Below, piece after piece: positions 16,136 through 33,028 of a stretch of DNA of 64,000 bases. The notes under the pieces were generated by a model. That model was given only the letters and a program-made list of their open reading frames with translations. It searched no databases and was not told the DNA's origin. The stretch's first letter is position 1; every line of letters starts with the position of its first letter. Where the stretch lies: sequence record ON528737; one strand, written 5' to 3'. The position numbers and the translations under genes were made by a program. Source of the stretch: Shigella phage ESh27.

Positions 16136-16142
16136 GGAAAAT

Positions 16143-16750: not shown

Positions 16751-16799
16751 AACACTTGCCTTAGCAGGTGGAACCCCGACAAGGTTGCCTCAAGGCTTA

Positions 16800-16826
16800 G
16801 CCCCTTCCGAAAGGTTGGGGCTTTTT
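16800..16826 (+). terminator. rho-independent terminator (repeat copy 1)
   Basis: GCCCCTTCCGAAAGGTTGGGGC hairpin plus T5; identical element at 32378 and 33001. Confidence 0.6.
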
Positions 16827-16916
16827 AGTTTGAATCACTCAGAGAATGCTGTTACTGATAATACCAAAGTAATAAATAATTAATAACAAACCGATAAATT
16901 ATTTCAAGGATTTTAA

Positions 16917-17480
16917 ATGAAAACCTATGCCGAATTTTTAACCGAAGCAGCAAAATTACCATCTGAAGCAGATCTTACTAAAGTATTCTTCTACTTGGAT
17001 CCAAAAGACCGTGGCGATTTTCTTAAGTGGAAAGCTAAAGCTATTGAAATGTATAGCATCGATACTAGTTCTTTTACGATGAGTCAAGAAAATAGTTTCA
17101 ATAAAGCGTTTTTCAAAATTTCTAAGAAACTGGCAGCTGGCACACAGGTTCCTAAATCCGCCTTAGCTACTCCTGAACGTGCACCTGTTAAAATTTCTAA
17201 GAATATGTTTGACACTAAAAAATATGTCAATGCTTTGAATAAAGCTCTTGATGCATTGGATGATGCAAAGAAGGCAGCCCGTGATCTTCAAGACGTGTAC
17301 ACTGATTTTGATCGTAAAACTAAAGGTTCTATTTCAAATAGCGAACGCAATAGTGTAAGTGTTTATTCTGATAGCCTTGATGTTCTTGGCGATGCGTATA
17401 CCGAAATTAAAAATCGTATTAACACTGCATCTAAGCTAAAAGCTGCTGCCGAAGCTATAATAACTAAACTAGGTAAATAA
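16917..17480 (+). CDS. internal-protein-like protein with CTS
   Basis: N-terminus MKTYAEFLTEA; 187 aa. Confidence 0.7.
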   Translation: MKTYAEFLTEAAKLPSEADLTKVFFYLDPKDRGDFLKWKAKAIEMYSIDTSSFTMSQENSFNKAFFKISKKLAAGTQVPKSALATPERAPVKISKNMFDTKKYVNALNKALDALDDAKKAARDLQDVYTDFDRKTKGSISNSERNSVSVYSDSLDVLGDAYTEIKNRINTASKLKAAAEAIITKLGK

Positions 17481-17486
17481 TTTTAA

Positions 17487-17512
17487 GCCCTATCTAAATG
17501 ATAGGGCTTTTT
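17487..17512 (+). terminator. rho-independent terminator
   Basis: GCCCTATC-TAAAT-GATAGGGC hairpin followed by TTTTT. Confidence 0.6.
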
Positions 17513-17582
17513 GGTATCTAGGCCTTTCCTCTCCCTGTCCTAGAATTCCCCAAAACTTTTTAAAAATTTTTTTCACAAAACT

Positions 17583-17612
17583 GTTTACATCCCTGTTCTT
17601 CCGTGGTACTAT
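17583..17612 (+). promoter_or_regulatory. early promoter (GTTTAC / TACTAT)
   Basis: 18-nt spacer; downstream ATCAACTAC leader motif. Confidence 0.5.
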
Positions 17613-17653
17613 ACAACTATCAACTACCGATACAGAAAAACTTGGAGAATGAA

Positions 17654-17917
17654 ATGGATAATTACGGTGAACTGTTCAACTTCTTTATGAAATGCGTTCC
17701 AGAAGATTTCGGACGTACGGTGAATGATATTAAAGTTATCGGTCCTGAACACCCTGTGTATGAAACCTATGCAGTAATGGGTAACGAAGATGGACAGTGG
17801 TATACAATTAAAGTTGTGATTAATATGTTCTCAGCTGAAGGTTACGCCAAATCGTCTACCAAAGTTTACCATGATAATGTCGAAATCGCTGAAGAATATT
17901 TCGATAATATGAAATAA
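17654..17917 (+). CDS. hypothetical protein
   Basis: Start MDNYGELF after GGAGAA; upstream in-frame ATG lies before the predicted transcript start. Confidence 0.55.
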   Translation: MDNYGELFNFFMKCVPEDFGRTVNDIKVIGPEHPVYETYAVMGNEDGQWYTIKVVINMFSAEGYAKSSTKVYHDNVEIAEEYFDNMK

Positions 17918-17974
17918 ATGCGTACATGGGCTTATGATTGAGATATTATGAGCCCTATTAATGAGGAGAATATT

Positions 17975-18280
17975 ATGAGTCTTTACACTGAACTGAATAA
18001 AAAATCTGAAGAATCTTCTGAAACTATTTTTAAAAACGTGCAAAAGCGTATTTTAGAAAAGACGTATAATGCTGCAGCTAAAGGTGAAAAATCTTGCCAG
18101 TTTCCGATGAGGTGTTCTTCAGATTTATGCGCAAACACTATTGAATGGCTGGAAAGTGAAGGTCTTACGGTAGAGAAAAACCCGGCGACTTCTATTGACA
18201 GTGAATCATATATTAGTATTTCTTGGGATAAACCTCGTACGAATGAAGGACACTACAAGTTGTTAAGTTGGAAAAATTAA
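17975..18280 (+). CDS. hypothetical protein
   Basis: GAGGAGAA then ATG at 17975. Confidence 0.55.
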   Translation: MSLYTELNKKSEESSETIFKNVQKRILEKTYNAAAKGEKSCQFPMRCSSDLCANTIEWLESEGLTVEKNPATSIDSESYISISWDKPRTNEGHYKLLSWKN

Positions 18281-18288
18281 AAATAATG

Positions 18289-18318
18289 ATGTACAAACAC
18301 CAAGGATGGTGATACTAT
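18289..18318 (+). promoter_or_regulatory. early promoter (variant -35, TACTAT -10, CACCA/TGGTG repeat)
   Basis: Same downstream ATCAACTAC...GAGGAG leader as other cassettes. Confidence 0.45.
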
Positions 18319-18347
18319 AGACTTATCAACTACAGAGGAGAAACAAA

Positions 18348-18575
18348 ATGGCTAAAGTTAGTATTGATGTCGTTGATTATGAATACACCGAAGAAGTTAT
18401 TCGCAACCGACACCCTGAAGTTCGTATCGATTCAGTCCAAGATTCCAAGTTCTGGACAACTGAGCTTAATCTGAGTGGTCCTTATGAAGCTGTTAAGAAG
18501 TTCATGGTTGAAGAATATTGCGAAGGCATGCACCCAGAAGACGCCAAGTTTTATGTCAATTTGATTAAAAAATAA
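18348..18575 (+). CDS. hypothetical protein
   Basis: 75-aa ORF after GAGGAGAAACAAA. Confidence 0.6.
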   Translation: MAKVSIDVVDYEYTEEVIRNRHPEVRIDSVQDSKFWTTELNLSGPYEAVKKFMVEEYCEGMHPEDAKFYVNLIKK

Positions 18576-18623
18576 TTTACAAACTCTTGAGAGCAGAGTA
18601 TAATGCTCTCGTTGGATAATAAA
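18575..18623 (+). promoter_or_regulatory. early promoter cassette (TATAAT -10 inside GAGAGCA/TGCTCTC palindrome), repeat copy A
   Basis: 41 bp 18583-18623 identical to 48207-48247. Confidence 0.5.
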
Positions 18624-18645
18624 CCACCAATTGAAAGGTAATAAT

Positions 18646-19239
18646 ATGAACACACTGAAGAAACTTGTTGAATTCATTCGCACTAAACTGGGTACTGCTA
18701 TGGCTAAAAATCTGACTGTCGAAGAACAGTATAACGCAGCCGCAGATAAGTTGATTACCCAAATCAAAGAACTAAAAACGGCTTCTATTAAATCTATTAA
18801 TGAAGAAAAACGTATTCGCGAACTTGTTAATGAAAAGAACAAGCAAGCCGCTTCTAAGGAACGTGAAATTCGTAAGCTCCTGGCTGAAGGACAAGATGTT
18901 ACCATGCATGCTAAGCTTGGACTTCTGTATCGTCGAACCGCCGAACAACTTAATACAAAAGCTGACGGGTATGCCGCTATGCGAATTGAAATTGCTCGTA
19001 AGGTGGTTGAACTTGACGATGCTCGTCAGAACCTGGCAATCAAACTTGAATACATCCGCGAAACTCGAGCAGCCAATGCCCTTGGTATCTCTACAGCTGA
19101 TGATGTAATTGAAATTGCTGCACTGACTAAGGTTGATATCGAAGACACTCTGACTCGTGTTGAAACATTCAATGGCACTCCAGCCGGTGTTGAAACCACT
19201 TCTGCTGATGTACAAGAATATATTAACTCTTTGAAATAA
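18646..19239 (+). CDS. hypothetical coiled-coil protein
   Basis: 197 aa, charged heptad-like sequence; AAAGG then ATG at 18646. Confidence 0.6.
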
Positions 19240-19247
19240 AATAATAC

Positions 19248-19269
19248 GGAGGACTCCGGTCCTCCTTTT
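19248..19269 (+). terminator. rho-independent terminator
   Basis: GGAGGAC-TCCG-GTCCTCC hairpin then TTTT. Confidence 0.55.
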
Positions 19270-19288
19270 GGATAATAAAGGAGTTAAC

Positions 19289-19891
19289 ATGCGAAACCAA
19301 AATAATGATATTGACTCAATGTTCGAAGAGTTCCGAGATAAGGTAAATCCACCTACGTCTTTAGTTGATTCATTACGATATGTTGCAACTGGACGTAAAT
19401 GGTATTGGTCGTCTTCTTATGAGACTACTGAGAAAACGGCTAGCCATAGCAGAAAATCTTTATTAGCCCCAGGTATTATGATTCATGATATCGGAGCTAT
19501 TGCTAAACTAGTTGCAGACCATGATATTAGATTCACTGATTTCGTTGCTCCTACGTGGTCTGTTTGTTGTTTAAACACTGAATGGGAATATATCAGCGAA
19601 CGCTCTGAAGATTATTATGGTTTTAGAGATAAGCTTTTAAGGTCTAACATGTTTTATATCGATACTGAAGTTCTAGTCGATAATAAAAAATATTACTTTA
19701 CGTTAATCGTCGATTCTGAAACTATGTATGAAGGCAAGCCTTTGCTTAAAAGAGTTGATGCTTTAAGTGCTATTGATGCGCTTTATGAAACTATGGTTGT
19801 TAGTCCTAATTTCACTAACAATTTAATCCTTGAGCAATTTATTATGGAATGTAGAGAATATGTCAAAGCCAACCCTGTACATGCCAATTAA
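19289..19891 (+). CDS. hypothetical protein
   Basis: AAAGGAG then ATG at 19289. Confidence 0.6.
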   Translation: MRNQNNDIDSMFEEFRDKVNPPTSLVDSLRYVATGRKWYWSSSYETTEKTASHSRKSLLAPGIMIHDIGAIAKLVADHDIRFTDFVAPTWSVCCLNTEWEYISERSEDYYGFRDKLLRSNMFYIDTEVLVDNKKYYFTLIVDSETMYEGKPLLKRVDALSAIDALYETMVVSPNFTNNLILEQFIMECREYVKANPVHAN

Positions 19892-20255
19892 GCCCTGGGC
19901 ATACGAATACAAACGTAAATTAATCCCAAATGAAGTACTATTTGGCCCTATTTTAGCTTTAGCATTTTTAATCTTTATGATTATAGGAGCTGTTTTAGAT
20001 TCCAACAAAGTTATATCGTCTGATGCAGCGTTTTCATTAATGTTCGTCGCACCACTTATTGTACCGTTTTTATTAATGCCTATTAATTGGGCAGGATATT
20101 GGCACCAAGGCCGTCATCACAGAGCCCGATTAAGAGAATGGAAAGTTCAGTGTGCAAAAGCCCAAGCTCAGTATGATGAAGCTGTTAAAAAATATGAATA
20201 TGAAGAAGCCATGGAATTCGTTAAGGAGATAAGATGCAAAAGCCTCAACTCTTAA
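19860..20255 (+). CDS. membrane protein (start uncertain)
   Basis: Hydrophobic segments; overlaps upstream gene end; ATG at 19860 or 19881. Confidence 0.45.
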   Translation: MSKPTLYMPIKPWAYEYKRKLIPNEVLFGPILALAFLIFMIIGAVLDSNKVISSDAAFSLMFVAPLIVPFLLMPINWAGYWHQGRHHRARLREWKVQCAKAQAQYDEAVKKYEYEEAMEFVKEIRCKSLNS

Positions 20256-20593
20256 CCGTATGGCCTTCTCTTGGTGAGAACATTCTAATTTTTATTATGA
20301 GTATTGGCATGGGATTTGCCTTTGGATTAGTTGGATTTATTATTGACGGCGTTGTGTTAGGATTTATAGGGAACACTGGTGGATTCACAGACCAATGGCA
20401 GGACTTACGGTATACCCAAGCCTTTGCATCCATCGCATCGTTTTGTACTGTAGCCTATTTTTACTACGATTTTATAAACCATAACAAGAAAAATAAAAAA
20501 GTTTACGCTTCTCAAATGATTAGTTATAATGAACTTCTAGCTAGACGTGAAAATGAAACAATCGAAAACTTTATTAAGGAATGTAGAAAATGA
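20234..20593 (+). CDS. membrane protein
   Basis: 119 aa with two hydrophobic helices. Confidence 0.55.
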   Translation: MQKPQLLTVWPSLGENILIFIMSIGMGFAFGLVGFIIDGVVLGFIGNTGGFTDQWQDLRYTQAFASIASFCTVAYFYYDFINHNKKNKKVYASQMISYNELLARRENETIENFIKECRK

Positions 20594-20895
20594 GTAAGAT
20601 TATTGAAATTAAAGTACCAGAGTTTAATGATGCCAAATCCGCTTCAGATGCAATTTATAAACTTCTGAATCAAGCTGAACGTATCGAAGAAGAAGCAACA
20701 AAGATCGCAGACCAATATGCCGTATCATTTTCTGTAGGTGATTATGGTAGCGGTCGTACTTATTATCCTAAGGGTGAAATTGTATCCCAGTGGATGAAAG
20801 ATGAAATTGAAAATAATGGTGGCGATGTTAAGCGTGAAGGTAATGGTTACGTTATTACTGAAGGTGCTTGGGTTTCGTCTTCTGCGTTGTGCTAA
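20590..20895 (+). CDS. small protein, C-terminal GWVSSSxxC family, paralog A
   Basis: Ends ...ITEGAWVSSSALC; AAGGAA-type RBS. Confidence 0.6.
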   Translation: MSKIIEIKVPEFNDAKSASDAIYKLLNQAERIEEEATKIADQYAVSFSVGDYGSGRTYYPKGEIVSQWMKDEIENNGGDVKREGNGYVITEGAWVSSSALC

Positions 20896-20904
20896 GGAAT
20901 CATT

Positions 20905-21177
20905 ATGTCTAAAGAACAAACCGAACTGGCTGAAGCCGTAGCAAAAATCTATGCAGCTATTGAGGCTGCCAAAGAAATTGCTAATAAACAAAACACAACA
21001 TTCGACTTGTATCCAGCTTATGGCATGGGTGGAACCTATCATTCACCAGGACATCTTAAAGCCGATCTTGAACGTTGTACAAAAAACGGCTATGCTGAAT
21101 GGGCTGACGTTTACCAATATGACTACAACCTGAGCCTTGAAGATGGCGGTTGGGTTGCATCTTCTCACACTTGTTAA
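20905..21177 (+). CDS. small protein, C-terminal GWVSSSxxC family, paralog B
   Basis: Ends ...EDGGWVASSHTC. Confidence 0.6.
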   Translation: MSKEQTELAEAVAKIYAAIEAAKEIANKQNTTFDLYPAYGMGGTYHSPGHLKADLERCTKNGYAEWADVYQYDYNLSLEDGGWVASSHTC

Positions 21178-21186
21178 GGAAATCAT

Positions 21187-21384
21187 ATGTCTCGCGAATT
21201 AGATTGTGCTGTACGTACGGCAGTAGCTGCTCTGGAAAACCTGTTCCAGATTGCAACCGAAGAGCGTGAAGAAGTTACATTGTGGATTGAAGATAACGCA
21301 GGTCTGAATCTCCAGGACGCGATCTCATTATCCAATAATAGCATTACTGTTCAAGGCTGGGTATCATCTAGTTATTCTTGCTAA
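21187..21384 (+). CDS. small protein, C-terminal GWVSSSxxC family, paralog C
   Basis: Ends ...TVQGWVSSSYSC. Confidence 0.6.
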   Translation: MSRELDCAVRTAVAALENLFQIATEEREEVTLWIEDNAGLNLQDAISLSNNSITVQGWVSSSYSC

Positions 21385-21388
21385 AACA

Positions 21389-21425
21389 GTTTACAACAAG
21401 ATAGGGCTATGTTATAGTAGTCCTA
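21389..21425 (+). promoter_or_regulatory. early promoter cassette (GTTTAC / TATAGT / TAGTCCTA arm)
   Basis: Same core as the 13675 cassette with one arm mismatch. Confidence 0.5.
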
Positions 21426-21446
21426 TCAAATTAAATGGAGTCCACA

Positions 21447-21686
21447 ATGATTTATTACGAAAGTATCGGAACCGAAGTAGTTGCTAAAACTATTACTCGT
21501 GAAAGGTTTGCAAAGATATTCGATATGCGTTATAAAAAATCTGAACACAAAGGCATCCGATTCGAAGATGCGCACTGTACAATTTGTCCTTATAATGAAG
21601 ACATAAACGGTACAATCGTTCCGTTGGTAGAGGCTTCACATGATGACCTCTGGGATGAATATAATATCGCATGTCGTGAAATTTAA
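21447..21686 (+). CDS. hypothetical protein
   Basis: GGAG then ATG at 21447. Confidence 0.55.
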   Translation: MIYYESIGTEVVAKTITRERFAKIFDMRYKKSEHKGIRFEDAHCTICPYNEDINGTIVPLVEASHDDLWDEYNIACREI

Positions 21687-21711
21687 GTAATCTAAATTTG
21701 AGGAAATTATT

Positions 21712-22668
21712 ATGATGTTAGTTATTGGTTCTCGTGCACTTCACTATCACGGCCTTATTGATTCTAGCGCTATCAAAAATAGTGATTGGGACTTTATTGC
21801 GGACCAAGGTTCTTGGAATGCATTCAAAAATCAAATGATGGGTGTATATGTTCACCAAGATAACCCTGATGTCCAAGTTTTCAAATGCTTCCATAATGGA
21901 CGCGAAACTCATTTTGAAGCATATATTGTTCCGGCAATCACTAATGTCCGTGAATTAGTCGGTGAACTCACTCCTGAAGATTTCACGTCTTCTTATGACC
22001 TTTTAAAATATGCCAAGAAAAATTTGACTAAAGACCGTTTGAACGGGTTTTACTGGGCAACTCCTGAGATGTGCCTTGCAATTAAGATGTCCCATCGTTT
22101 CAAGAAAAATAATCCATTCTTTTTAAAGACTATGAACCATATTCAGTATCTTCGTGGTAAAGGTGTTACACTGAACGATGAACTTACTGAAATTATGCTG
22201 AAACGCCAGAAAGAAACCTTGAACTATGCCCACCCAGTTCTTGACACTTCTAAAAGCGCATTCTTTAAAGATGACATCTATACATATGACCATGATACTA
22301 TTCACGAAGCCATTGCACTAACAGACCGTCCAGCGTATACATTTTATATGAAAGATGGTTCTGAAGTCATGACCTCACGCGAGAAGTTCGAATCATTACC
22401 AGAAATGGTCAAATTGGCCGGTGTATACGAAGAATCATGTGTACTAGCATTAGAACGTTCTCAGATTCCTAATGACTTTAAAATTAACCCTGAAGCCAGT
22501 TTCATGATGGCATTAGAAAAAGTCTGTACAAGCATCACCTCGGGTTGGTTCCGTGAGTATGCCTGGGAAAACTACAGCAAAGTAGTAAGTATGTACCAAA
22601 GCTTAGGACATGATGATTACGTCAAACGTTTCAAACAAAATTTCCATATGGTAAAACCTTTCAAATAA
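21712..22668 (+). CDS. hypothetical protein, possible nucleotidyltransferase fold
   Basis: 318 aa; N-terminal IGSRAL...SDWDF resembles a loosened GS...DxD motif; assignment weak. Confidence 0.6.
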   Translation: MMLVIGSRALHYHGLIDSSAIKNSDWDFIADQGSWNAFKNQMMGVYVHQDNPDVQVFKCFHNGRETHFEAYIVPAITNVRELVGELTPEDFTSSYDLLKYAKKNLTKDRLNGFYWATPEMCLAIKMSHRFKKNNPFFLKTMNHIQYLRGKGVTLNDELTEIMLKRQKETLNYAHPVLDTSKSAFFKDDIYTYDHDTIHEAIALTDRPAYTFYMKDGSEVMTSREKFESLPEMVKLAGVYEESCVLALERSQIPNDFKINPEASFMMALEKVCTSITSGWFREYAWENYSKVVSMYQSLGHDDYVKRFKQNFHMVKPFK

Positions 22669-22680
22669 CTTCACAAAACT

Positions 22681-22717
22681 GTTTACACAATTATAGGACT
22701 ATGTTATAGTAGTCCTA
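22681..22717 (+). promoter_or_regulatory. early promoter cassette with perfect palindrome TAGGACTA-N8-TAGTCCTA
   Basis: GTTTAC 22681-22686, TATAGT 22705-22710. Confidence 0.5.
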
Positions 22718-22738
22718 TTAAAACATGAGGAGAATATT

Positions 22739-23044
22739 ATGAAATTATCCGAAACCAACCGAATTGGCCTTTTAACGATACTTACATCACCTTTTTATGC
22801 TGTGCTTTCTGTTGCAGTATTACAAAAGGCCTATGGCATGGACGGTGTTCCTGGTTGTGTATTTTTATCACCATTTTTGTTATTCGTTGGTGCTCTGTTA
22901 TTATACGCGACAACAGGTTTCGACCATAATGTTTGGGTCAAGTTTAAACGTAGATTAACTGAAGAAGAACACGCTGAAGCTCGTAAAAAAGCTATTGAAT
23001 CAACAGATTTAGAAAATTTTGTTAAAGAATGTCGAGGAAAATAA
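22739..23044 (+). CDS. membrane protein
   Basis: 101 aa, two hydrophobic helices. Confidence 0.6.
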   Translation: MKLSETNRIGLLTILTSPFYAVLSVAVLQKAYGMDGVPGCVFLSPFLLFVGALLLYATTGFDHNVWVKFKRRLTEEEHAEARKKAIESTDLENFVKECRGK

Positions 23045-23045
23045 T

Positions 23046-23732
23046 ATGAATAGTTCTAAAGTGTTTAATAGTCAAGCTCGTGCAGTAGGTGGTTTTGCTC
23101 ACGATATTAAGAATGACGAAATCAAAAATGAACCTATGTTCTTTAACTGTGATTTGAGTTTTGCTTGGGATAATGGTGGCCCAATCACTCGTAGCTTTAT
23201 TGCCAATCTCCCAATTGATTGGACTAATCAACATGTTGTATTCGATTCTCGGGTTCATATGCTGATGCCTGGTTGGTATCCTGCTATTCCTGGTTATCAC
23301 CATGACGATGTACCACGCCCAGATATTCCAACAGGACAACATTTTATTACTGCAGGACAACCTGATTATGACAATCCTCGCTATTTGTCTGAACATATTC
23401 TTGGTCTTGTTAACGCTGATGTGTGTCCTACTCATTTTGCAACAGGAACTGCAGAGTTCAGTCAGATTCCTGATGGCGAACTTATCTATCGCCAGTGGCA
23501 CAAAGAAGTCCTCGAAAAAATTGAAAAAGGTGAACTAGAGAAATGGGAAGCTCCAGATCGTACTCTTCTTCAGTTTGATTGGCAAACATGGCACACTGGT
23601 TCTCGTGCAATTAGTAACGGATGGCGTTGGTTCGGACGTGTATCTCGTAATACAGACCGAGTTAAAAAGATTACCAATGAAATTCGTGTCAATGCTCAAG
23701 TTTATCTGGAATTCCCTATGGAAGGCTGGTAA
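23046..23732 (+). CDS. hypothetical protein (His/Trp-rich)
   Basis: GAGGAAAA then ATG at 23046; 228 aa. Confidence 0.6.
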   Translation: MNSSKVFNSQARAVGGFAHDIKNDEIKNEPMFFNCDLSFAWDNGGPITRSFIANLPIDWTNQHVVFDSRVHMLMPGWYPAIPGYHHDDVPRPDIPTGQHFITAGQPDYDNPRYLSEHILGLVNADVCPTHFATGTAEFSQIPDGELIYRQWHKEVLEKIEKGELEKWEAPDRTLLQFDWQTWHTGSRAISNGWRWFGRVSRNTDRVKKITNEIRVNAQVYLEFPMEGW

Positions 23733-24904: not shown

Positions 24905-24910
24905 GTAATA

Positions 24911-25705: not shown

Positions 25706-25706
25706 T

Positions 25707-25760: not shown

Positions 25761-25763
25761 ATT

Positions 25764-26177
25764 ATGACTCGTATCAATTTAACACTTGTTTCTGAACTGA
25801 CTGACCAACATCTTATGGCTGAGTATCGTGAATTACCACGCGTATTTGGTGCAGTCCGTAAACATGTTCAAAACGGTAAACGTGTAAAGGATTTTAAAAT
25901 CTCTCCGACATTTATCTTAGGCACGGGTCACGTAACATTCTTTTACGACAAACTCGAATTTTTACGTTTACGTCAAATCGAGCTAATCACTGAATGCTTG
26001 AAACGTGGTTTCAAAATCAAGGACACGACAGTCCAGGATATTTCCGACATCCCTGCCGAATTTCGTAATAATTATGTCCCGTCCGAAGCGTCCATTGCGA
26101 TAAGTCAAGCACGCTTAGATGAAAAAATTGCTCAACGTCCGACTTGGTACAAATACTATGGTAAATCAATTTACTAA
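25764..26177 (+). CDS. denV: endonuclease V (pyrimidine dimer DNA glycosylase)
   Basis: [34 protein letters not shown]... matches T4 DenV. Confidence 0.96.
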
Positions 26178-26183
26178 GGAAAA

Positions 26184-26444
26184 ATGAAAATGTATCAAGA
26201 ATTTATCACTGAAGCAGATGCCAAAGGTCCTAAATTTAAAGTTAAAGCTTTCATTGGTGATGCGGAAGACTTTGGCTCGTTAAAACGTAATGGGTATTCT
26301 TTCTTAGGTGGCGATGGTAAAGAAATCAACACCTATGCAAAACGTAGTGAAATTGCTTATGTTGTAGCAAGCCCTAAAGTAGATGCTGACGATATTGGAT
26401 ACGATTTTAACAACTTCGGAATTATTTCTGGCGGTAAAGCTTAA
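26184..26444 (+). CDS. internal-protein-like protein with CTS
   Basis: N-terminus MKMYQEFITEA; 86 aa. Confidence 0.65.
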   Translation: MKMYQEFITEADAKGPKFKVKAFIGDAEDFGSLKRNGYSFLGGDGKEINTYAKRSEIAYVVASPKVDADDIGYDFNNFGIISGGKA

Positions 26445-26446
26445 AT

Positions 26447-26478
26447 TGTTTACGCTTAAGTATTAATATGGTATAATT
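26447..26478 (+). promoter_or_regulatory. early promoter (GTTTAC / TATAAT)
   Basis: Followed by the CTATCAAAACAA leader motif. Confidence 0.45.
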
Positions 26479-26507
26479 ACTCTATCAAAACAAACAAGGA
26501 AACAAAA

Positions 26508-27086
26508 ATGAAAACATATAAAGAATTTATCGCCGAGGCCTTTGCAGGAAAAGTCCAAGGCATTAATAAGGACGAGTGGAATTATCGTGGCGGAAACGGC
26601 TTTGACCCTAAAACTGCTCCTATTGAACGGTACTTAGCTACAAAGGCTTCCGACTTTAAAGCCTTCGCTTGGGAAGGACTTCGCTGGCGTAACGATCTAA
26701 ATATTGAAGTTGATGGTCTTAAATTTGCTCATATTGAAGATGTTGTTGCTAGTAACTTAGACGCAGCTTTTGTTAAAGCCGACAGTGACCTTCGTCGCTG
26801 GAATTTAAAACTGTTCTCTAAACAAAAAGGCCCGAAGTTTGTGCCTAAAGCAGGTAAATGGGTCATTGATAATAAATTGGCTAAAGCTGTCAACTACGCT
26901 GGTCTTGAATTTGCCAAGCATAAATCATCATGGAAAGGTCTTGACGCAATGGCTTTCCGTAAAGAATTTGCCGATGTTATGGCTAAAGGCGGCTTTAAGG
27001 CAGAAATAGATACCTCTAAAGGTACGTTTAAAGACGCTAATGTTCAGTACGCTTACGCCGTTGCTAATGCAGCCCGTGGTAATTAA
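26508..27086 (+). CDS. internal-protein-like protein with CTS (IPIII-sized)
   Basis: N-terminus MKTYKEFIAEA; 192 aa. Confidence 0.7.
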   Translation: MKTYKEFIAEAFAGKVQGINKDEWNYRGGNGFDPKTAPIERYLATKASDFKAFAWEGLRWRNDLNIEVDGLKFAHIEDVVASNLDAAFVKADSDLRRWNLKLFSKQKGPKFVPKAGKWVIDNKLAKAVNYAGLEFAKHKSSWKGLDAMAFRKEFADVMAKGGFKAEIDTSKGTFKDANVQYAYAVANAARGN

Positions 27087-27088
27087 TA

Positions 27089-27110
27089 AGGCCTATACTT
27101 AGGCCTATTT
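27089..27110 (+). terminator. terminator-like hairpin
   Basis: AGGCCT-ATACTT-AGGCCT then ATTT, directly after the stop codon. Confidence 0.4.
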
Positions 27111-27264
27111 ACATTCAACTAAAATGGGAACAACCTGGACCTCATTATTCTATGAGGGATTCCCGCCAACCTGTAATAAGGTCGAGCCCAAGTGCGGTAA
27201 TGGGTAAATACAGAAACGGACAAGTCATGCGCCATGGAATGGCCCAAACCTTAAGAGAAATAAT

Positions 27265-27804
27265 ATGAGAACATTTTTAACTGGACCTTATCTATCCCTG
27301 ATGAATGCTTTTACACACCATTCTGATGCTAGAGTAGAAGAAATTTGTAAGAACGGTTATACCCCACCATTTGAAGATGTACTCAAGCAGTACTGTACAC
27401 TTCGTTTAGACGGCGGCAGACAATCAGGTAAATCAATTGCTGTGACTAACTTTGCTGCTAATTGGCTGTATGATGGTGGAACAGTTATTGTTCTTTCTAA
27501 TACTTCAGCTTATGCTAAAATTTCTGCTGGCAACATTGAAAAAGAATTTTCGCGTTATTCTAGCGACGATATTCGATTCCGTTTATTTACTGATTCTGTT
27601 CGTAGTTTTATTGGCAATGAAGGTTCTAAATTCCGTGGATTAACGCTTTCTCGTATTCTGTATATAATTGACGAGCCTATTAAAGCTCCTGATATGGATA
27701 AGATTTACAATGTCCATATTAAAACAGTCCAACACTGCTGTAAAAGCAAATATTGCAACGGCGGTATTGCTCGTCCTCAATTTTTTGTGATTGGAATGCA
27801 ATGA
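27265..27804 (+). CDS. small P-loop NTPase
   Basis: Walker A GGRQSGKS and Walker B ILYIIDE. Confidence 0.6.
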   Translation: MRTFLTGPYLSLMNAFTHHSDARVEEICKNGYTPPFEDVLKQYCTLRLDGGRQSGKSIAVTNFAANWLYDGGTVIVLSNTSAYAKISAGNIEKEFSRYSSDDIRFRLFTDSVRSFIGNEGSKFRGLTLSRILYIIDEPIKAPDMDKIYNVHIKTVQHCCKSKYCNGGIARPQFFVIGMQ

Positions 27805-28109
27805 TGACCACTATTGAAGTTTTTGAGTATTGTTATAACAGCCCAGTATGCAATAAAAGGGCTCTTGTAGAAAATTACGAGATTTACCATTTTAAACCTA
27901 AACGATATCGTTTGACTAAAGGTCCGTTCGCAGGGCAGCAGGTTCTTTGTACTGCTCCTAATGCACGGTTGATGACTAGTATTCCACATTTCAAAATGGA
28001 ATTTATTGATGGGCCATTTAAGGGATTAATCACTCAAAGTTTAATGGCGTTTAATTCCGACCCATTTTTGATTAAAGAAAAAACTTGGATAAATTTATTT
28101 TCTAATTGA
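27801..28109 (+). CDS. hypothetical protein
   Basis: ATGA overlap with upstream gene. Confidence 0.5.
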   Translation: MMTTIEVFEYCYNSPVCNKRALVENYEIYHFKPKRYRLTKGPFAGQQVLCTAPNARLMTSIPHFKMEFIDGPFKGLITQSLMAFNSDPFLIKEKTWINLFSN

Positions 28110-28115
28110 GGTTAT

Positions 28116-28478
28116 ATGAAAGCATATCAAATTCTTGAAGGTGCACATAAAGGCACTATTTATTTTGAAGACGGTACTCAAGCCCGGATTATTGTCTCTA
28201 AGACTTTTAAAGAAGACGCTATTGTAGACTCAGAAATTTTCTACGGTTTGAATGCCCGTGAAATTGAAATTGAACATCAACCTAAAGTTAAAATTGAAGG
28301 TGGTCAACACCTGAACGTTAACGTTCTGCGTCGTGAAACTCTGGAAGATGCAGTTAAGCATCCGGAAAAATATCCGCAGCTGACCATCCGTGTATCCGGT
28401 TATGCAGTTCGCTTTAACTCTCTGACTCCGGAACAGCAGCGCGACGTTATCGCTCGTACCTTTACTGAGAGTCTATAA
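28116..28478 (+). CDS. autonomous glycyl radical cofactor (GrcA/YfiD-like)
   Basis: C-terminus ...[60 protein letters not shown] with the RVSGY glycyl radical motif. Confidence 0.85.
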
Positions 28479-28702
28479 TGGCTAAATTGATTATAGAAGG
28501 GTCTGAAGATGTTTTAAAATGTTTTGCCGCCTGGTTTAGTTGCTCAGGCGAGCAATCATTCATTGAAGCATTTAGAATGGGTGATATTACTGGAAACTAT
28601 CCGACAACTGATATCACTGTACGTGGATACGGTATTAATGAGCCTATCCAATTGGTCGAATATGACCTTGCCACCGATGAGGAAATTCCTTATGTCGATT
28701 GA
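28478..28702 (+). CDS. hypothetical protein
   Basis: 74-aa ORF; overlapping alternative-frame ORF 28524-28958 not preferred. Confidence 0.45.
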   Translation: MAKLIIEGSEDVLKCFAAWFSCSGEQSFIEAFRMGDITGNYPTTDITVRGYGINEPIQLVEYDLATDEEIPYVD

Positions 28703-28958
28703 AGACATCAAAGGCTACAAGCCGCATACCGATGATAAAATTGGTAAAGTGAACGCTATTAAAGATGCTGAAGTCCGTCTTGGATTGTTGTTTGATGCTC
28801 TGATTGAAGAAGCATATATCTTGAAAGAAAATGAAACAGAGCAACAAACCAAAGAAGATATGGATGCAGTGCAGGCTCTTAAGTATGCTAAGCAACATCT
28901 AAAAGAAGCCAGCATGTGGGCATGCCGCGCAGTATTTCGACCTGAGGAAAAATACTAA
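28692..28958 (+). CDS. hypothetical protein
   Basis: ATG at 28692 overlaps upstream stop. Confidence 0.45.
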   Translation: MSIEDIKGYKPHTDDKIGKVNAIKDAEVRLGLLFDALIEEAYILKENETEQQTKEDMDAVQALKYAKQHLKEASMWACRAVFRPEEKY

Positions 28959-29173
28959 TGGCTTCTACTATTACTGGGTTATTGGACTTCCAGGAAAAGG
29001 TCAACAAAATTTGTAGTGAATACTTAAAGTATCTTGAAGAAGACCTTGAAGATTGTAAAGAAGAAGGCGAAGAAGACTATGCTGACCAGCGTCGTCGCCA
29101 AATCGAAGAGATGAGGCATTTCGCCGATATGGTATCTAAAGAATCTTGGGCTTTAACTCCATTTTATCAATAA
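28958..29173 (+). CDS. hypothetical acidic protein
   Basis: 71-aa ORF. Confidence 0.5.
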   Translation: MASTITGLLDFQEKVNKICSEYLKYLEEDLEDCKEEGEEDYADQRRRQIEEMRHFADMVSKESWALTPFYQ

Positions 29174-29177
29174 AGTA

Positions 29178-29228
29178 GTTTACTTCTCCTCTAGTTGTGT
29201 TACTATAGACCTGTCAACTAGAGGAGAA
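29178..29228 (+). promoter_or_regulatory. early promoter inside a perfect 14-bp inverted repeat that includes the regB SD
   Basis: GTTTAC 29178-83, TACTAT 29201-06; arms TTCTCCTCTAGTTG (29184-97) / CAACTAGAGGAGAA (29215-28). Confidence 0.55.
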
Positions 29229-29234
29229 ATCAAA

Positions 29235-29693
29235 ATGACTATCAATTCGGAAGTTTTTATCCGCCGTAATAAACTCCGTCGAATCTTTGAAACGGAGTTC
29301 CGCAAAATAAATGCCGGTATAAAAGATGCTGCAAAGTCTCTTGGACTACCAGGCTTTCATATCAAGTATTCTCAACATCTCTTAGATCGTGCCATCCAGA
29401 GAGAAATAGATGAGAATTACGTTTTTGAATTATTTCGTAAAGTAAAAAATCACGTTAAAGAAGTTGCAGAATTTTTATCAATGCCGGCACGTCCAGATGT
29501 TGATGAAGATTTTGTCGAAGGTGTCGAATATCGCCCAGGCCGTTTAGAAATAACTGATGGAAATCTTTGGTTAGGCCTTACAGTTTGTCGCGAAAATCCG
29601 GCATTCAAAATGAAGACTCTTCAATGTAGAATGGCTATTATTAACAGTAAACGACTACCAGGAAAAGCTTCTAAAGCAGTGATTAAAATCTAG
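29235..29693 (+). CDS. regB: RegB site-specific endoribonuclease
   Basis: MTINSEVFIRRNKLRR...LDRAIQREIDE...RMAIINSKRLPGKASKAVIK matches T4 RegB. Confidence 0.92.
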   Translation: MTINSEVFIRRNKLRRIFETEFRKINAGIKDAAKSLGLPGFHIKYSQHLLDRAIQREIDENYVFELFRKVKNHVKEVAEFLSMPARPDVDEDFVEGVEYRPGRLEITDGNLWLGLTVCRENPAFKMKTLQCRMAIINSKRLPGKASKAVIKI

Positions 29694-29701
29694 AGGTAAA
29701 C

Positions 29702-30244
29702 ATGAGAAAAGCACTACTCGCTGGTCTATTTGCTCTTTCGTTATCAGCACATAGCTCCGAGCATACTTTTAGTAATGTCCAACTCGATAACTTGAATTAT
29801 GCTTATCAGTTTGGGGAACAGTTTTCTAAGGACGGAAAATTTAAAACGCATGAAAATATGCATAAGAAAGGACTTGGATACATAATGGCCGCAATACTAT
29901 GGCAGGAATCATCTGCCGGTGTTAATCTTAAAGATAAGAAAGGTCACCATGCGTATGGAATGTTCCAAAACTATCTACCAACAATGAGGGCAAGAATTAA
30001 CCAGCTTGGTTATAATATGACTGATGCCCAAATTAAGAAAATGCTATCTAAGCGGTCTAATTCAGCCAGATGGGCTTATATCGAATTTTCTTATTGGTTA
30101 AATATACATAACGGGGATATAAGAAAAGCTATATCCTCATATAATGCGGGATGGAAGACAAGTGCTGGAAGTAAATATGCTTCTGAAGTCCTAGAAAAGG
30201 CTAATTACCTTAAATCAAATAAACTACTGGAAGTAAAAGAATGA
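29702..30244 (+). CDS. secreted lytic-transglycosylase-like (SLT domain) protein
   Basis: Signal peptide MRKALLAGLFALSLSAHS; QESS and SYNAG motifs. Confidence 0.65.
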   Translation: MRKALLAGLFALSLSAHSSEHTFSNVQLDNLNYAYQFGEQFSKDGKFKTHENMHKKGLGYIMAAILWQESSAGVNLKDKKGHHAYGMFQNYLPTMRARINQLGYNMTDAQIKKMLSKRSNSARWAYIEFSYWLNIHNGDIRKAISSYNAGWKTSAGSKYASEVLEKANYLKSNKLLEVKE

Positions 30245-30588
30245 CCAAAATGTTGGCTTTAATAGTTGGCTTGGTTTCATTTAACGCTCTTGCTAATACT
30301 ACATATACTGATGTAACGGAGTATATAAACAGAACGGCGTCTGATTATTGTGGTAAAAGTCAAGAGTGTAAAGTAGATTTTTCACAAAAATTGTTATACG
30401 CATATAAAGACGGAGAAAAAGATGGGGCGTCTAGTAGGTTCAAGGCGTCTACCTTAATTAAACGATATCATAAAAAATGGCAAATATTAGAATGCTCGGT
30501 GGCGGAACCTAAAGATAAGGCAGCATGCAATTCTATGGTGGACCGTCTAGTTGACTCTTATACTAGAGGACTTGCAGCAAGTGATTAA
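30241..30588 (+). CDS. secreted cysteine-containing small protein
   Basis: Signal peptide MTKMLALIVGLVSFNALA; 115 aa. Confidence 0.55.
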   Translation: MTKMLALIVGLVSFNALANTTYTDVTEYINRTASDYCGKSQECKVDFSQKLLYAYKDGEKDGASSRFKASTLIKRYHKKWQILECSVAEPKDKAACNSMVDRLVDSYTRGLAASD

Positions 30589-31045
30589 AAACTATATCAA
30601 GGGCGATATTGTCGCCCTGTTTTCTAAAGGTAATAATATTGCTCATGGGTGTAATTGTTTTCATACAATGGGCGCAGGTGTAGCAGGACAATTAGCAAAG
30701 GCGTATCCAAAAATTCTGGAAGCTGATAAACTTCAAACTGTATATGGAGATGAGTCTAAACTCGGATCTTATTCAGTTTATGAAAAATATTTTAAGACCC
30801 ATAAAGCTTATTGCTTTAATCTTTATACACAGTTTGAGCCGGGACCTAATTTTGAGTACTCTGCTTTAATGAATTGTATAATAGAATTAAATGAATTCGG
30901 AAAAAATAAGATAACAAAGCCTGTAATTTATATGCCAAGAATTGGTGCAGGTATTGGTGGCGGAAACTGGGATGTCATCGAAGAGATTTTAGATACGTAT
31001 TCCACTAAACTAGAAATTGTGATTGTTGATTGGGAACCTAAATGA
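30581..31045 (+). CDS. macro-domain-like protein (putative ADP-ribose binding or processing)
   Basis: GDIV...NIAHGCNC...MGAGVAG and ...PRIGAGIGGG pattern; GTG start at 30581 after AGAGGA. Confidence 0.55.
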   Translation: MIKNYIKGDIVALFSKGNNIAHGCNCFHTMGAGVAGQLAKAYPKILEADKLQTVYGDESKLGSYSVYEKYFKTHKAYCFNLYTQFEPGPNFEYSALMNCIIELNEFGKNKITKPVIYMPRIGAGIGGGNWDVIEEILDTYSTKLEIVIVDWEPK

Positions 31046-31224
31046 AATTGACTAAAGAAGAGAAAGCTAAACTGTTCGAACTTATCCATGACCTATTGGA
31101 TGAGCAAGCAGCCACTAATGCGTATGATGAATATGCTCCTTTAACAGATGAAGAATATCAAACATTGTTGGAATCATTTGACAGGAAAGAACAAGAACTC
31201 ATTGACTATGTGAATTCACTATAA
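31042..31224 (+). CDS. hypothetical acidic protein
   Basis: 60-aa ORF. Confidence 0.45.
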   Translation: MKLTKEEKAKLFELIHDLLDEQAATNAYDEYAPLTDEEYQTLLESFDRKEQELIDYVNSL

Positions 31225-31233
31225 GGGACTCTT

Positions 31234-31815
31234 ATGGCTAGTTTAATTTTTACCTATGCCGCTATGAACGCCGGTAAGTCTGCTTCATTACTTACCGCCG
31301 CACATAACTATAAAGAACGTGGCATGGGTGTATTAGTTCTTAAACCGGATATTGATACTCGTGATTCAAAAGGTGAAATAGTCTCTCGTATTGGTATTCG
31401 TCAGGATGCCAATATAATTACAAAAGACATGGATATCTTTGAATTCTATAAATGGGCTGCAGCACAAAAGGATATTCACTGTGTATTTGTTGATGAAGCT
31501 CAGTTCTTAACTACTGAAAAGGTGTATCAGCTTAGTCGTATTGTTGACGTATACAATGTGCCGGTAATGGCATACGGACTACGAACAGATTTTAAAGGTA
31601 ATCTATTTGAAGGTTCTCAAGCATTAATGGCTATTGCCGATAAGCTTGTTGAACTTAAAGGTGTCTGTCATTGTGGTAAAAAGGCCACTATGGTAGCTAG
31701 AGTCACGGAAGATGGACTTCCAATTACAGACGGTGGACAAATTGAAATTGGTGATACTGATAGATATGTGTCATTATGCCGGAAGCATTGGAATGATTTG
31801 ACAGGGTTGTTATAA
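31234..31815 (+). CDS. tk: thymidine kinase
   Basis: P-loop AAMNAGKSASLL, VDEAQF, C-terminal zinc ribbon CHCGKKA...LCRKHW; 193 aa. Confidence 0.92.
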   Translation: MASLIFTYAAMNAGKSASLLTAAHNYKERGMGVLVLKPDIDTRDSKGEIVSRIGIRQDANIITKDMDIFEFYKWAAAQKDIHCVFVDEAQFLTTEKVYQLSRIVDVYNVPVMAYGLRTDFKGNLFEGSQALMAIADKLVELKGVCHCGKKATMVARVTEDGLPITDGGQIEIGDTDRYVSLCRKHWNDLTGLL

Positions 31816-31842
31816 ATACTAATATCTAACCAAGAGGTATAT

Positions 31843-32055
31843 ATGCAGCAATTAAACGAAAGACAACTTCGTAATCTTACTGTAACCCAATTGGATGAAA
31901 TCCGAAGAGAATTAGGACATTCTATTTCTCATTTAAACGAGGATATCCGTCAAACTGGTTCTAAAGCTGATTATACACGCAAGCGCAAGCTGGAAAAATA
32001 CCTCGCAGATGTTAAGGCCGTTCAAAGGCGAAAAATAAATACTGGCCAAAATTAA
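31843..32055 (+). CDS. hypothetical basic protein
   Basis: 70-aa ORF between tk and rI. Confidence 0.5.
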
Positions 32056-32067
32056 CAGGAGGCCTAT

Positions 32068-32370
32068 ATGGCCTTAAGAGCGATAGCCATTGTGGCGATG
32101 CTGGGGTTTTTTGCAGCAACGACTCCTATTGTTGGTACTGCATATGTTGACCCGTACTTTGATAACTTTATGGAATCAGGGATTAAAAACGTATATACTT
32201 TGTTCGAAATTCAAAATGTTGAGAATTCTGAAAAATTTTATAAGTATATGGCAAAGCATTACAAAAATAGCCCCTGTGATGATGCATTTGAATGCCAGGA
32301 ACAAGGCATAAAAACTGCCAGACAATTTGCCGAGTTCATGAAAATAAAATTAGAGCCTACATCTATCTAA
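32068..32370 (+). CDS. rI: lysis inhibition regulator RI
   Basis: Signal anchor MALRAIAIVAMLGFF..., VDPYFDNFMESGI..., ~100 aa, resembles T4 RI. Confidence 0.82.
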   Translation: MALRAIAIVAMLGFFAATTPIVGTAYVDPYFDNFMESGIKNVYTLFEIQNVENSEKFYKYMAKHYKNSPCDDAFECQEQGIKTARQFAEFMKIKLEPTSI

Positions 32371-32377
32371 TTTACTA

Positions 32378-32404
32378 GCCCCTTCCGAAAGGTTGGGGCT
32401 TTTT
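32378..32404 (+). terminator. rho-independent terminator (repeat copy 2)
   Basis: Same GCCCCTTCCGAAAGGTTGGGGC-T5 element. Confidence 0.6.
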
Positions 32405-32437
32405 GTATAAATATCCTTGTAAACTAAGAGAGGATAT

Positions 32438-32995
32438 ATGAAATTTTTAAAATATGTAAGTTGGGTTGTTCTTGTTCCTATAGATTGGATCGCAGCGATT
32501 TTGGCAATTATTCTAGCACCATTTGTAGTTCCATTCCATAGTGAAAAAACCGGTAAACTACCTTATGGCTTTAACTGGATGATGACTTACGATAATCCTA
32601 TCGATGGTGACCGTGGCCATGTTGAACGTTGGTCTAAAATACGTAAAATTCCTGTTATAGGTAAATATGCTCAACGCGTAGCTTGGCTATGGCGAAACAA
32701 AGCATATAATTTTTCGTATCATGTTTTAGGGCGTGAAGCTTCATCAGAATGGCACTATAAAGGCAACACCGAAACTAAATCTGGTTCTCCTGACCCAGCA
32801 CATCATGGATACCTTTTAGTTTGGAATGAGTCTGCATGGGGATTATTCGCTGCTATACCTTATCTTAAGGTCGGCGGTATTACATTTTATCTGCGCGTTT
32901 ACTGTGGTTGGAAACTTAAGAGTCTTTTGAGTCGTCCTATTCCACGCGCAATGCTTTCATTCCATATCAACCCTTTACGATATTACAAAAACTAA
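32438..32995 (+). CDS. membrane-anchored hypothetical protein
   Basis: N-terminal hydrophobic helix; 185 aa. Confidence 0.6.
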   Translation: MKFLKYVSWVVLVPIDWIAAILAIILAPFVVPFHSEKTGKLPYGFNWMMTYDNPIDGDRGHVERWSKIRKIPVIGKYAQRVAWLWRNKAYNFSYHVLGREASSEWHYKGNTETKSGSPDPAHHGYLLVWNESAWGLFAAIPYLKVGGITFYLRVYCGWKLKSLLSRPIPRAMLSFHINPLRYYKN

Positions 32996-33000
32996 TCAAA

Positions 33001-33028
33001 GCCCCTTCCGAAAGGTTGGGGCTTTTTT
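33001..33028 (+). terminator. rho-independent terminator (repeat copy 3)
   Basis: Same GCCCCTTCCGAAAGGTTGGGGC element, T6. Confidence 0.6.

Follow-up and report, generated by a model that had tools for sequence, protein, structure and literature searches.

The closest described counterparts of the locus reported here are the promoter-early stem-loop (PeSL) cassettes of T4-type phages (Arbiol et al. 2010, PMC2839356; Comeau et al. 2014, PMC4122927), in which copies of a conserved regulatory motif that includes a terminator stem-loop are concentrated in hyperplastic regions, on either side of single ORFs without known function; such an ORF can be found in one phage and missing from a close relative, where one motif stays at the empty site. 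The 64-kb window (the whole stretch of DNA that was analysed) comes from an RB69-group (Mosigvirus) T4-type phage and contains one putative terminator hairpin in three copies, two of which enclose a single gene. Close relatives differ likewise in whether they carry this gene (of the RB69-group loci compared, 10 are occupied and 10 empty), and the third copy, together with a predicted early promoter at 33039-33067, makes up a stem-loop/early-promoter composite. On the other hand, the PeSL is a promoter/stem-loop composite of about 100 bp, whereas the repeat considered here consists of the hairpin and the T-run alone (28-33 nt); the PeSL brings an early promoter, whereas our cassette seems to bring a late-promoter motif, which stands next to copy 2; and there are two or three copies per genome (three in the 64-kb window) rather than about 50. 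Moreover, unlike in the PeSL systems, one of the copies terminates a tRNA/stable-RNA operon. The RB69 group lies outside the phage pairs analysed in the two studies (PMC2839356, PMC4122927), and the name RB69 occurs 0 times in PMC4122927. Modular shuffling mediated by PeSLs is a mechanism already described in T4-type phages (PMC2839356, PMC4122927), and our results suggest that the window cassette is a further example, which would broaden the PeSL/linker idea so that it covers a repeat made of a terminator only and an apparently late-expressed cassette. Other PeSL-like promoter/stem-loop repeats are also present in the window (families D1-D6 and D12).

Further systems invite comparison. For the morons of Hendrix and colleagues, insertion by illegitimate recombination has been proposed, with no role given to regulatory sequences in the account relayed by PMC2839356. 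Our cassette resembles a moron in that an extra single gene with its own promoter (TATAAATA at 32406, presumably active) and terminator stands between rI and mobD.2a, which are adjacent in RB69; here, however, the joints fall at the terminators, and the gene is co-oriented with its neighbours. The variable loci for internal proteins (IP) in T-even phages (Repoila et al. 1994, relayed by PMC2839356) are also single-gene modules swapped between conserved regulatory sequences, but in that account they are based on early promoters and have weak AT-rich stem-loops, whereas the hairpin studied here is strong and GC-rich. Finally, integrons too take up single-gene cassettes next to a promoter, with imperfect hairpins (attC sites) as boundaries. 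This analogy is functional only: there is no tyrosine-recombinase integrase with a nearby attI here, no recombinase family is represented among the neighbouring ORFs, and the boundaries are direct terminator repeats.

The 28-nt sequence AGCCCCTTCCGAAAGGTTGGGGCTTTTT, composed of a leading A, the 22-mer GCCCCTTCCGAAAGGTTGGGGC and five Ts, occurs exactly three times in the window, at 16799, 32377 and 33000, always on the plus strand, with the 22-mer at 16800-16821, 32378-32399 and 33001-33022. The sequence-only reading had claimed that the 22-mer and its T-run are identical at 16800, 32378 and 33001, and that two copies bracket a single gene for a 185-aa membrane protein; the exact search and the shuffled controls confirm the former, while the ORF at 32438-32995, with its one N-terminal hydrophobic segment, agrees with the latter. 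A fourth copy of the 22-mer was not found in the window even with up to three mismatches, and 100 dinucleotide-preserving shuffles yielded 0 matches, the chance expectation being none. The T-run comprises five residues in copies 1 and 2 and six in copy 3, and copies 2 and 3 share GTAT downstream of it. The RNA is predicted to form a stem of 6 + 2 bp, interrupted by a 2x2 U.U internal loop and capped by a GAAA tetraloop (-15.6 kcal/mol). Thus, the repeat has the make-up of an intrinsic terminator, i.e. a GC-rich hairpin followed by T5 or T6 on the coding strand, and also the appropriate location, 6 nt past the rI stop codon, 4 nt past the DUF7338 stop codon and 50 nt past the rnaC homolog. From these features we interpret all three copies as a Rho-independent terminator hairpin, probably active at copies 2 and 3. 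The two T.T mismatches in the stem are the probable reason why a generic terminator scan of the window did not report it. The other terminators in the window all differ from one another, and a literature search with the sequence of the hairpin yielded nothing but a terminator table. Since the close relatives that bear the insert have exactly three hairpin places per genome, the window probably contains every exact copy present in its own genome.

Copy 2 (32377-32404, plus strand) is the resident terminator of rI (32068-32370, plus strand; phrog_1246), which encodes the lysis inhibition regulator according to the annotation of RB69 and KMB38, and it varies among relatives as do the hairpins at empty sites. 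It is followed at 32406-32413 (plus strand) by TATAAATA, the T4 late-promoter consensus, which occurs at only five sites on the plus and two on the minus strand of the whole 64-kb window and from which the cassette gene would be transcribed late. The ATG of this gene (32438-32995, plus strand; phrog_2143), which encodes a DUF7338 protein of 185 aa, lies 24 nt downstream; no paper in the literature searched mentions DUF7338. Copy 3 (33000-33028, plus strand) and the preceding ACTAATCAAA are invariant in all 10 occupied genomes compared, and this copy appears to travel with the cassette. Eleven nucleotides past its T-run starts the predicted T4-type early promoter (GTTTAC-17-TATAGT, plus strand; repeat family D5) of the PeSL-like terminator/promoter composite, which would drive the mobD.2a homolog (DUF7438; 33095-33274, plus strand). 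In RB69 mobD.2a stands directly 3' of a single hairpin; relative to that genome, the insert in the window amounts to 623 bp and comprises TATAAATA, the DUF7338 gene and the second hairpin. The ORFs around the cassette are tk, rI.1 and rI, and those for DUF7438, DUF7189 and y05I-like proteins; a recombinase or nuclease gene was found neither in the cassette nor adjoining it.

Both states of this locus are found among the relatives. In RB69 and nine other genomes the interval between rI and mobD.2a contains exactly one hairpin and no insert, and in 10 genomes it consists of a hairpin, 623 bp and another hairpin; the DUF7338 gene is carried by about 22 of about 160 close records. The occupied and empty genomes are interleaved in the trees of both flanks, the diversity of the cassette is about that of the flanks, and the loop and upstream variants of the left copy are re-assorted relative to the cassette. 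The sequence-only reading had suggested recombination of a cassette type, for which the copies could provide homology, a view that it would have given up if the copies were absent from related genomes or the flanks fully conserved. Neither is the case, as RB69 and many other relatives have a one-hairpin empty site, and the suggestion is supported by these empty alleles, by presence and absence that do not follow the flank phylogeny, and by the second locus and second cargo described below.

Copy 1 (16799-16826, plus strand) is the predicted terminator of the tRNA/rnaD/rnaC unit. This region starts with a plus-strand tRNA-Met at 15505-15579 (ARAGORN; Rfam tRNA, 59.4 bits) and includes, also on the plus strand, homologs of T4 rnaD (species 2 stable RNA, 16483-16603) and rnaC (species 1 stable RNA, 16606-16748), which align with their T4 counterparts near-identically, as well as a 3' trailer between rnaC and the hairpin (ACACTTGCC...CAAGGCTT, 16749-16798), kept in T4, KAW1E185, VR5, DK-13 and IMG/VR contigs. 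A search of 15300-17000 against Rfam found the tRNA-Met only, and no family over rnaC, rnaD or the hairpin. The T4 counterpart of copy 1 is the "RNA C" terminator (PMC5931544, Table 2), which agrees with it in position and sequence and lies downstream of a near-identical rnaD, rnaC and trailer. However, the T4 stem carries GA in place of the TT of the window; it is therefore fully paired, with one G.U, and lacks the T.T mismatch. In T4 an unrelated hairpin follows rI/rI.-1, which makes the sharing of one hairpin between these two loci specific to the RB69 group.

It is at the rnaC site that other cargo and other genera come into view. In the Tequatroviruses KAW1E185, L113 and L126 the hairpins bracket a different gene, and the sequence past copy 1 in the window is the same as that past their second copy; relative to these phages, copy 1 is an "empty" cassette site. 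The hairpin-bracketed ORF of KAW1E185, which is preceded by the first hairpin and TATAAATA, belongs to phrog_2280, as does the first gene 3' of copy 1 in the window (16917-17480, plus strand; 187 aa, N-terminus MKTYAEFL). The genes adjoining copy 1 have MKTY(Q/A)EF N-termini, which resemble the capsid-targeting sequence, a further parallel with the IP loci. By reading only, no exact promoter consensus was seen in the approximately 90 nt between copy 1 and the next ORF. In the Dhakavirus-type contigs L021, L022, L096 and L187 the order is rnaC, hairpin, TATAAATA, DUF7338 gene, hairpin, and the homology of this unit to the window cassette runs from the left hairpin to the right hairpin with its T-run and GTAT. 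The motif TATAAATA also follows the hairpin in VR5, L021/L022 and L019, and its place is taken by TATAAATC in DK-13. Among the loci examined, no RB69-group genome has DUF7338 at the tRNA locus. Three or four genera thus show the same joints, which occur at two loci and with two different cargo genes, and the site after the rnaC terminator can be marked in annotation as a variable-gene hotspot.

The stem of the hairpin exists in lineage-specific variants (GCCCC-GA, GGCCC-TT and GCCCC-TT), which are mostly common to the copies of one genome. Copies of one genome are not always identical, as several phages have TTAT or TAAA in the loop of the rI copy, and GCCCC and GGCCC stems are mixed in a single genome. 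The tandem T.T mismatch is kept across loci and genera, including the bidirectional uvsW.1/uvsY.-2 terminator of T4, APCEc01 and VR5. The TT/TT stem is not a generally favoured terminator stem, as it occurred in 0 of 114 contexts when both dinucleotides were left free; TT is the commonest partner once the 3' half of the stem is fixed. A host origin of the hairpin was also rejected, as the 5,426 E. coli genomes searched lack it and give one weak match only.

We propose, with a probability of roughly 0.7, that the hairpin belongs to a small terminator family reused by T-even phages, the copies of which provide linker homology for the gain and loss of single-gene cassettes. As direct repeats of 28-33 nt in a highly recombining phage, the copies most likely act as portable linkers. 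According to this scenario, copy 1 would end the tRNA/rnaD/rnaC unit, copy 2 rI, and copy 3 the inserted cassette of late-promoter motif, DUF7338 gene and hairpin. If two copies recombined, or mispaired by slippage, the cassette would be lost and a single hairpin would stay behind. Conversely, it would be inserted beside any resident copy by the same process in reverse or by a double crossover with a co-infecting relative, while ectopic conversion would keep the copies of one genome alike. Direct observations are the repeats, the alleles with and without the cassette, the second locus, the lineage-specific stem variants within genomes and the re-assortment relative to the flanks, and from these we infer crossovers inside the hairpin, i.e. 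that the hairpins are the actual recombination substrate. Against this, an allele that arose a single time could be re-assorted by ordinary recombination of the genes on either side, and 28 nt is shorter than the approximately 50 bp usually quoted for efficient homologous recombination in T4, a figure cited in PMC2839356. The cassette, which brings its own terminator and lands beside a resident copy of the same terminator, would be a clear sequence-level case, in the well-studied RB69 group, of T4-type phages moving single accessory genes with the neighbours undisturbed, and it would explain to annotators the recurrence of one terminator sequence. An easy experimental system is at hand in natural phages of both states, occupied and empty, on E. 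coli K-12.

Alternatively, each hairpin could be merely the terminator of its own gene, with one old illegitimate event having put DUF7338 and the terminators beside rI, and ordinary homologous recombination in the flanks having spread the result, in which the hairpins would have had no part as substrate. T4-type phages recombine genome-wide, the right copy is invariant and moves with the cassette, and the DUF7338 gene of L009 was lost by deletion between TAAAA(T) microrepeats within the ORF, not at the hairpins. Furthermore, the DUF7338 gene of Gaprivervirus and VR5 has an unrelated terminator behind it, which means that two identical hairpins are not required. Nevertheless, we consider this explanation rather improbable, as the empty sites retain exactly one hairpin without a scar, the homology of the unit stops exactly at the outer hairpin edges at two loci, and the arrangement is seen again around another cargo gene, with hairpin variants specific to the lineage. 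In PTE-Eco05, moreover, a left copy with the TTAT loop is combined with the cassette, which requires an exchange no more than about 20 nt away from the hairpin.

A still less likely scenario is that the linker copies proposed above are in fact a dedicated site, comparable to an integron attC or to the target of a structure-specific nuclease, i.e. that a phage factor (endonuclease VII or another protein) binds or cuts the folded T.T hairpin to capture, excise and homogenise terminator-bounded cassettes. It would explain why several genera retain the mismatch both in the core uvsW.1/uvsY.-2 terminator and in the copies at rnaC, at rI and in the cassette, and it is consistent with the precise junctions, with the speculation of Arbiol et al. 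that G/C stem-loops may be targets of a DNA-binding protein and with the T4 deletions associated with GGGC/GCCC (PMC2839356). However, the cassette and its surroundings lack a candidate recombinase or nuclease gene, the T4 rnaC hairpin lacks the mismatch, and the cassette junctions differ between KMB38 and the window, as homology-driven exchange predicts. It is hardly credible that an optimal terminator sequence arose three times independently: GC-rich stems on a GAAA tetraloop are common and the exact 22-mer also turns up in a few viral contigs that seem unrelated (L004/L008, L007, L012), which might point to horizontal spread of the hairpin and the contexts of which otherwise share nothing, but the 28-nt identity covers two non-pairing T.T positions, the 0 of 114 contexts with TT/TT in the unbiased scan argue against convergence, the remaining terminators of the window are mutually different, and the variants are lineage-specific and common to the copies.

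Two minor observations concern sequences related to the cassette. At the tRNA locus of L011 a leader (GTATAAATAT...GTAAAC) resembles that of the DUF7338 cassette and precedes a different ORF, and on contig 2706795553 (L056) a DUF7338 paralog, 57% identical, adjoins a tRNA.

The window represents a T4-type phage of the RB69 group (Mosigvirus) and contains GCCCCTTCCGAAAGGTTGGGGC in three exact copies on the + strand, at 16800 (copy 1), 32378 (copy 2) and 33001 (copy 3). The claim of the sequence-only reading that one 22-mer with a T-run occurs three times is thus borne out: a search of the window allowing up to three mismatches found no further copy, and 100 dinucleotide-preserving shuffles yielded no match. 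The stretch identical among all three copies comprises 28 nt (an A, the 22-mer and T5), and copies 2 and 3 additionally share GTAT 3' of the T-run. The RNA folds into a hairpin with a stem of 6 + 2 bp, a 2x2 U.U internal loop and a GAAA tetraloop (-15.6 kcal/mol), which a generic terminator scan did not report, probably because of the stem mismatches.

Copy 1 follows near-identical homologs of the T4 stable-RNA genes rnaD (16483-16603) and rnaC (16606-16748) and a conserved trailer. T4 carries GCCCCGACCGAAAGGTTGGGGC and T5 at the equivalent position, and nearly the same sequence appears under the name "RNA C" terminator where PMC5931544 tabulates a T4-like phage against the reference list for T4. 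Copy 1 is therefore the terminator that closes the tRNA/stable-RNA operon. What follows the rnaC hairpin takes at least five different forms across T-even phages. In the Tequatroviruses KAW1E185, L113 and L126 the hairpin is followed by GGTATAAATA (AGTATAAATA in L126), a 157-aa ORF (phrog_2280 in KAW1E185) and a second hairpin, while T4 has the empty form of this site. The window sequence 3' of copy 1 (AGTTTGAATCACTC...) matches that 3' of the second hairpin in L113 and L126, which makes copy 1 likewise an empty form of the Tequatrovirus bracketed site. The window ORF starting at 16917 also belongs to phrog_2280, and according to BLASTP it shares with the KAW1E185 bracketed ORF only 11 N-terminal residues. 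This N-terminus, MKTY(Q/A)EF(I/L), recurs in window ORFs starting at 13365, 13738, 26185 and 26509, and is similar to the capsid-targeting sequence found in T4 internal proteins. Upstream, the interval 15602-16487 between tRNA-Met (15505-15579) and the rnaD homolog contains two ORFs, one of 177 aa with MUG113/T5orf172 domains and one of 122 aa; its VR5 counterpart is a second tRNA, and the T4 tRNA cluster harbors the homing endonuclease gene segB. The two ORFs may represent a further mobile insertion at this tRNA locus.

Copy 2 lies 6 nt 3' of the rI stop codon. The rI/rI.-1 terminator of T4 (AGTCTCCTTCGGGAGACT) and the rI terminator of VR5 are unrelated hairpins, hence use of the same hairpin at both rnaC and rI is specific to the RB69 group. 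In RB69 itself the order is rI, a single hairpin, an early promoter and mobD.2a; the window has 623 bp added between two hairpins. The insert begins with TATAAATA, the T4 late-promoter consensus (32406-32413), found at only five sites on the + strand and two on the - strand of the 64 kb, followed by a ribosome-binding site and by a DUF7338 (Pfam)/phrog_2143 gene (32438-32995). Its product of 185 aa has a single N-terminal hydrophobic segment, in agreement with the single membrane-protein gene previously proposed between copies 2 and 3. Copy 3 is located 4 nt 3' of the stop codon of this ORF and is itself followed by a T4-type early promoter, GTTTAC-17-TATAGT (33039-33067), which is predicted to drive the mobD.2a homolog. 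The layout of promoter, gene and terminator is that of a "moron". The window-type gene (at least 95% identity) is present in about 22 phage records, 12 of which form the near-identical LF82 series, and is absent from most RB69-group records.

In other genera a related gene resides at the rnaC locus. Gaprivervirus (DK-13, L003/L019) and Dhakavirus (VR5) have a 74-77% identical DUF7338 gene directly 3' of the hairpin, and four Dhakavirus-type contigs (L021, L022, L096 and L187) have it between two copies of their lineage's hairpin variant, GGCCCTTCCGAAAGGTTGGGCC, both followed by a T-run and GTATAAATA. The window unit aligns almost without gaps with that of L021 (17-26 of 30 positions identical per block, 57-87%) from the left hairpin through the right hairpin, T-run and GTAT; beyond the outer hairpin edges, forced alignment gives approximately 27-53% identity and is full of gaps. 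Because the homology stops at the outer hairpin edges, we regard these as one hairpin-bounded unit at two different loci in two genera. DUF7338 genes occur beside or near tRNA genes outside T-even phages as well: in Felix-O1-like contigs, RB16, PG7-type T4-like contigs and L056 (loci L035, L039, L040, L056, L015, L024-L027).

Comparison of 10 occupied and 10 empty loci within the RB69 group reveals that in occupied loci neither the right hairpin nor the ACTAATCAAA before it varies, while the left hairpin (loop GAAA, TTAT or TAAA) and its upstream bases (TTTACTA, TTTACCT or TCAAA) exhibit the same polymorphisms as empty sites, and the sequence 3' of the right copy also varies as in empty sites. 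In trees of both flanks occupied and empty genomes are interleaved (the occupied FL18 is nearest to the empty mobillu, at 0.7% divergence), and the mean diversity of the cassette, 1.8%, is similar to that of the left flank, 2.1%. Judging from these alignments, the cassette is an old presence/absence polymorphism that has undergone repeated re-assortment, and some of the exchanges took place no more than about 20 nt from the hairpin. The suggestion of cassette-type recombination is thereby upheld, as the flanks do differ among relatives: RB69 lacks the insert, occupied and empty loci coexist, and the unit is found at another locus.

We propose, with a probability of about 0.7, that the hairpin family is reused as portable linker homology that moves terminator-bounded single-gene cassettes, its copies being homogenised by conversion. 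Exchange or slippage between direct copies would delete, insert or relocate a cassette, and ectopic conversion would keep the copies alike; the crossover at the hairpins is inferred from the comparisons. The same mechanism has been proposed for PeSLs, for which mini-circles were demonstrated experimentally (PMC2839356). Against this linker model stand the different 3' terminator of the DUF7338 gene in Gaprivervirus and VR5, the shortness of 28 nt for efficient homologous recombination, and the loss of the gene in contig 2974735671 (L009 1000-1160 vs L170 1085-1740), where short TAAAA(T) repeats within the ORF bound a deletion of almost all of DUF7338, so that the stretch around the start codon and the final ~70 nt of the gene remain before the hairpin. 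That the terminator is a passenger of the gene is a considerably weaker explanation, and a site-specific or structure-specific system is weaker still. Least credible is convergence, which the stem argues against: a scan that constrained neither stem dinucleotide found TT/TT in none of 114 distinct IMG/VR contexts.

The stem variants are lineage-specific and mostly common to copies within one genome: GCCCC-GA in Tequatrovirus (up to two loci per genome), GGCCC-TT in the Dhakavirus type (up to three) and GCCCC-TT in the RB69 group and Gaprivervirus (one to three). The GGCCC and GCCCC stems differ by a compensatory change, so the base pair is preserved. Exceptions are the TTAT/TAAA loops at some rI copies, a stem change in WFbE185 and one contig that mixes GCCCC and GGCCC stems. 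In the Dhakavirus type, the third locus is the convergent uvsW.1/uvsY.-2 junction, whose bidirectional terminator is described as conserved in T4-like phages (PMC1524935); at this junction T4 (L319, 114440-114496) and Mosigvirus APCEc01 (L320) also carry the T.T-mismatched stem, with loops of 5 nt. The stem GGCCC TT CC ... GG TT GGGCC is common to T4, a Mosigvirus and a Dhakavirus, and in VR5 (L317, 113504-113568) the hairpin is identical to that of the rnaC locus. No clear match was found in 5,426 E. coli genomes (one weak match). When the 3' half is set to GGTTGGG, the 5' partner seen most often is the non-pairing TT, ahead of the Watson-Crick AA, in roughly 20 apparently unrelated context families as counted by reading the list (IMG/VR L091, L092, L103, L120, L004/L008 and others). 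The tandem T.T mismatch is conserved, and a more specific role of the hairpin is conceivable. The loop can be replaced as a block with the stem kept, as in KAW1E185 (L017 2059-2080), where GAAA is flipped to its exact complement TTTC, or at the rI locus of several RB69-group phages (L079, L081, CCU7, Shf125875, PTE-Eco05, AV109), where it became TTAT or TAAA. Five terminator-like hairpins occur in the 251-kb viral contig IMGVR_UViG_3300045125_000071 (L129, L138); they have the core CCC(G/A)ACCGAAAGGTTGGG in common but differ in their outer stems, and four of them lie within 3.4 kb.

Among known elements, the present one comes closest to PeSL cassettes, morons, the T4 RNA C terminator and the variable IP loci. 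Unlike in PeSLs, the repeat is the hairpin alone, each genome has 2-3 copies instead of about 50, and the cassette seems to carry a late-promoter motif, not an early promoter; the element is therefore not a typical PeSL, yet it behaves like one. The PeSL-type design of promoter plus stem-loop is found in this RB69-group phage in the repeat families D1-D6 (13688, 21402, 22694, 33504), early promoters conserved over 40-67 nt whose -10 region is framed by an 8-bp inverted repeat (TAGGACTA...TAGTCCTA). A further 62-nt repeat, 94% identical, occurs about 30 kb apart at 18562-18623 and 48186-48247 and combines TTTACA-17-TATAAT with a stem, GAGAGCA/TGCTCTC, that spans the -10 box.
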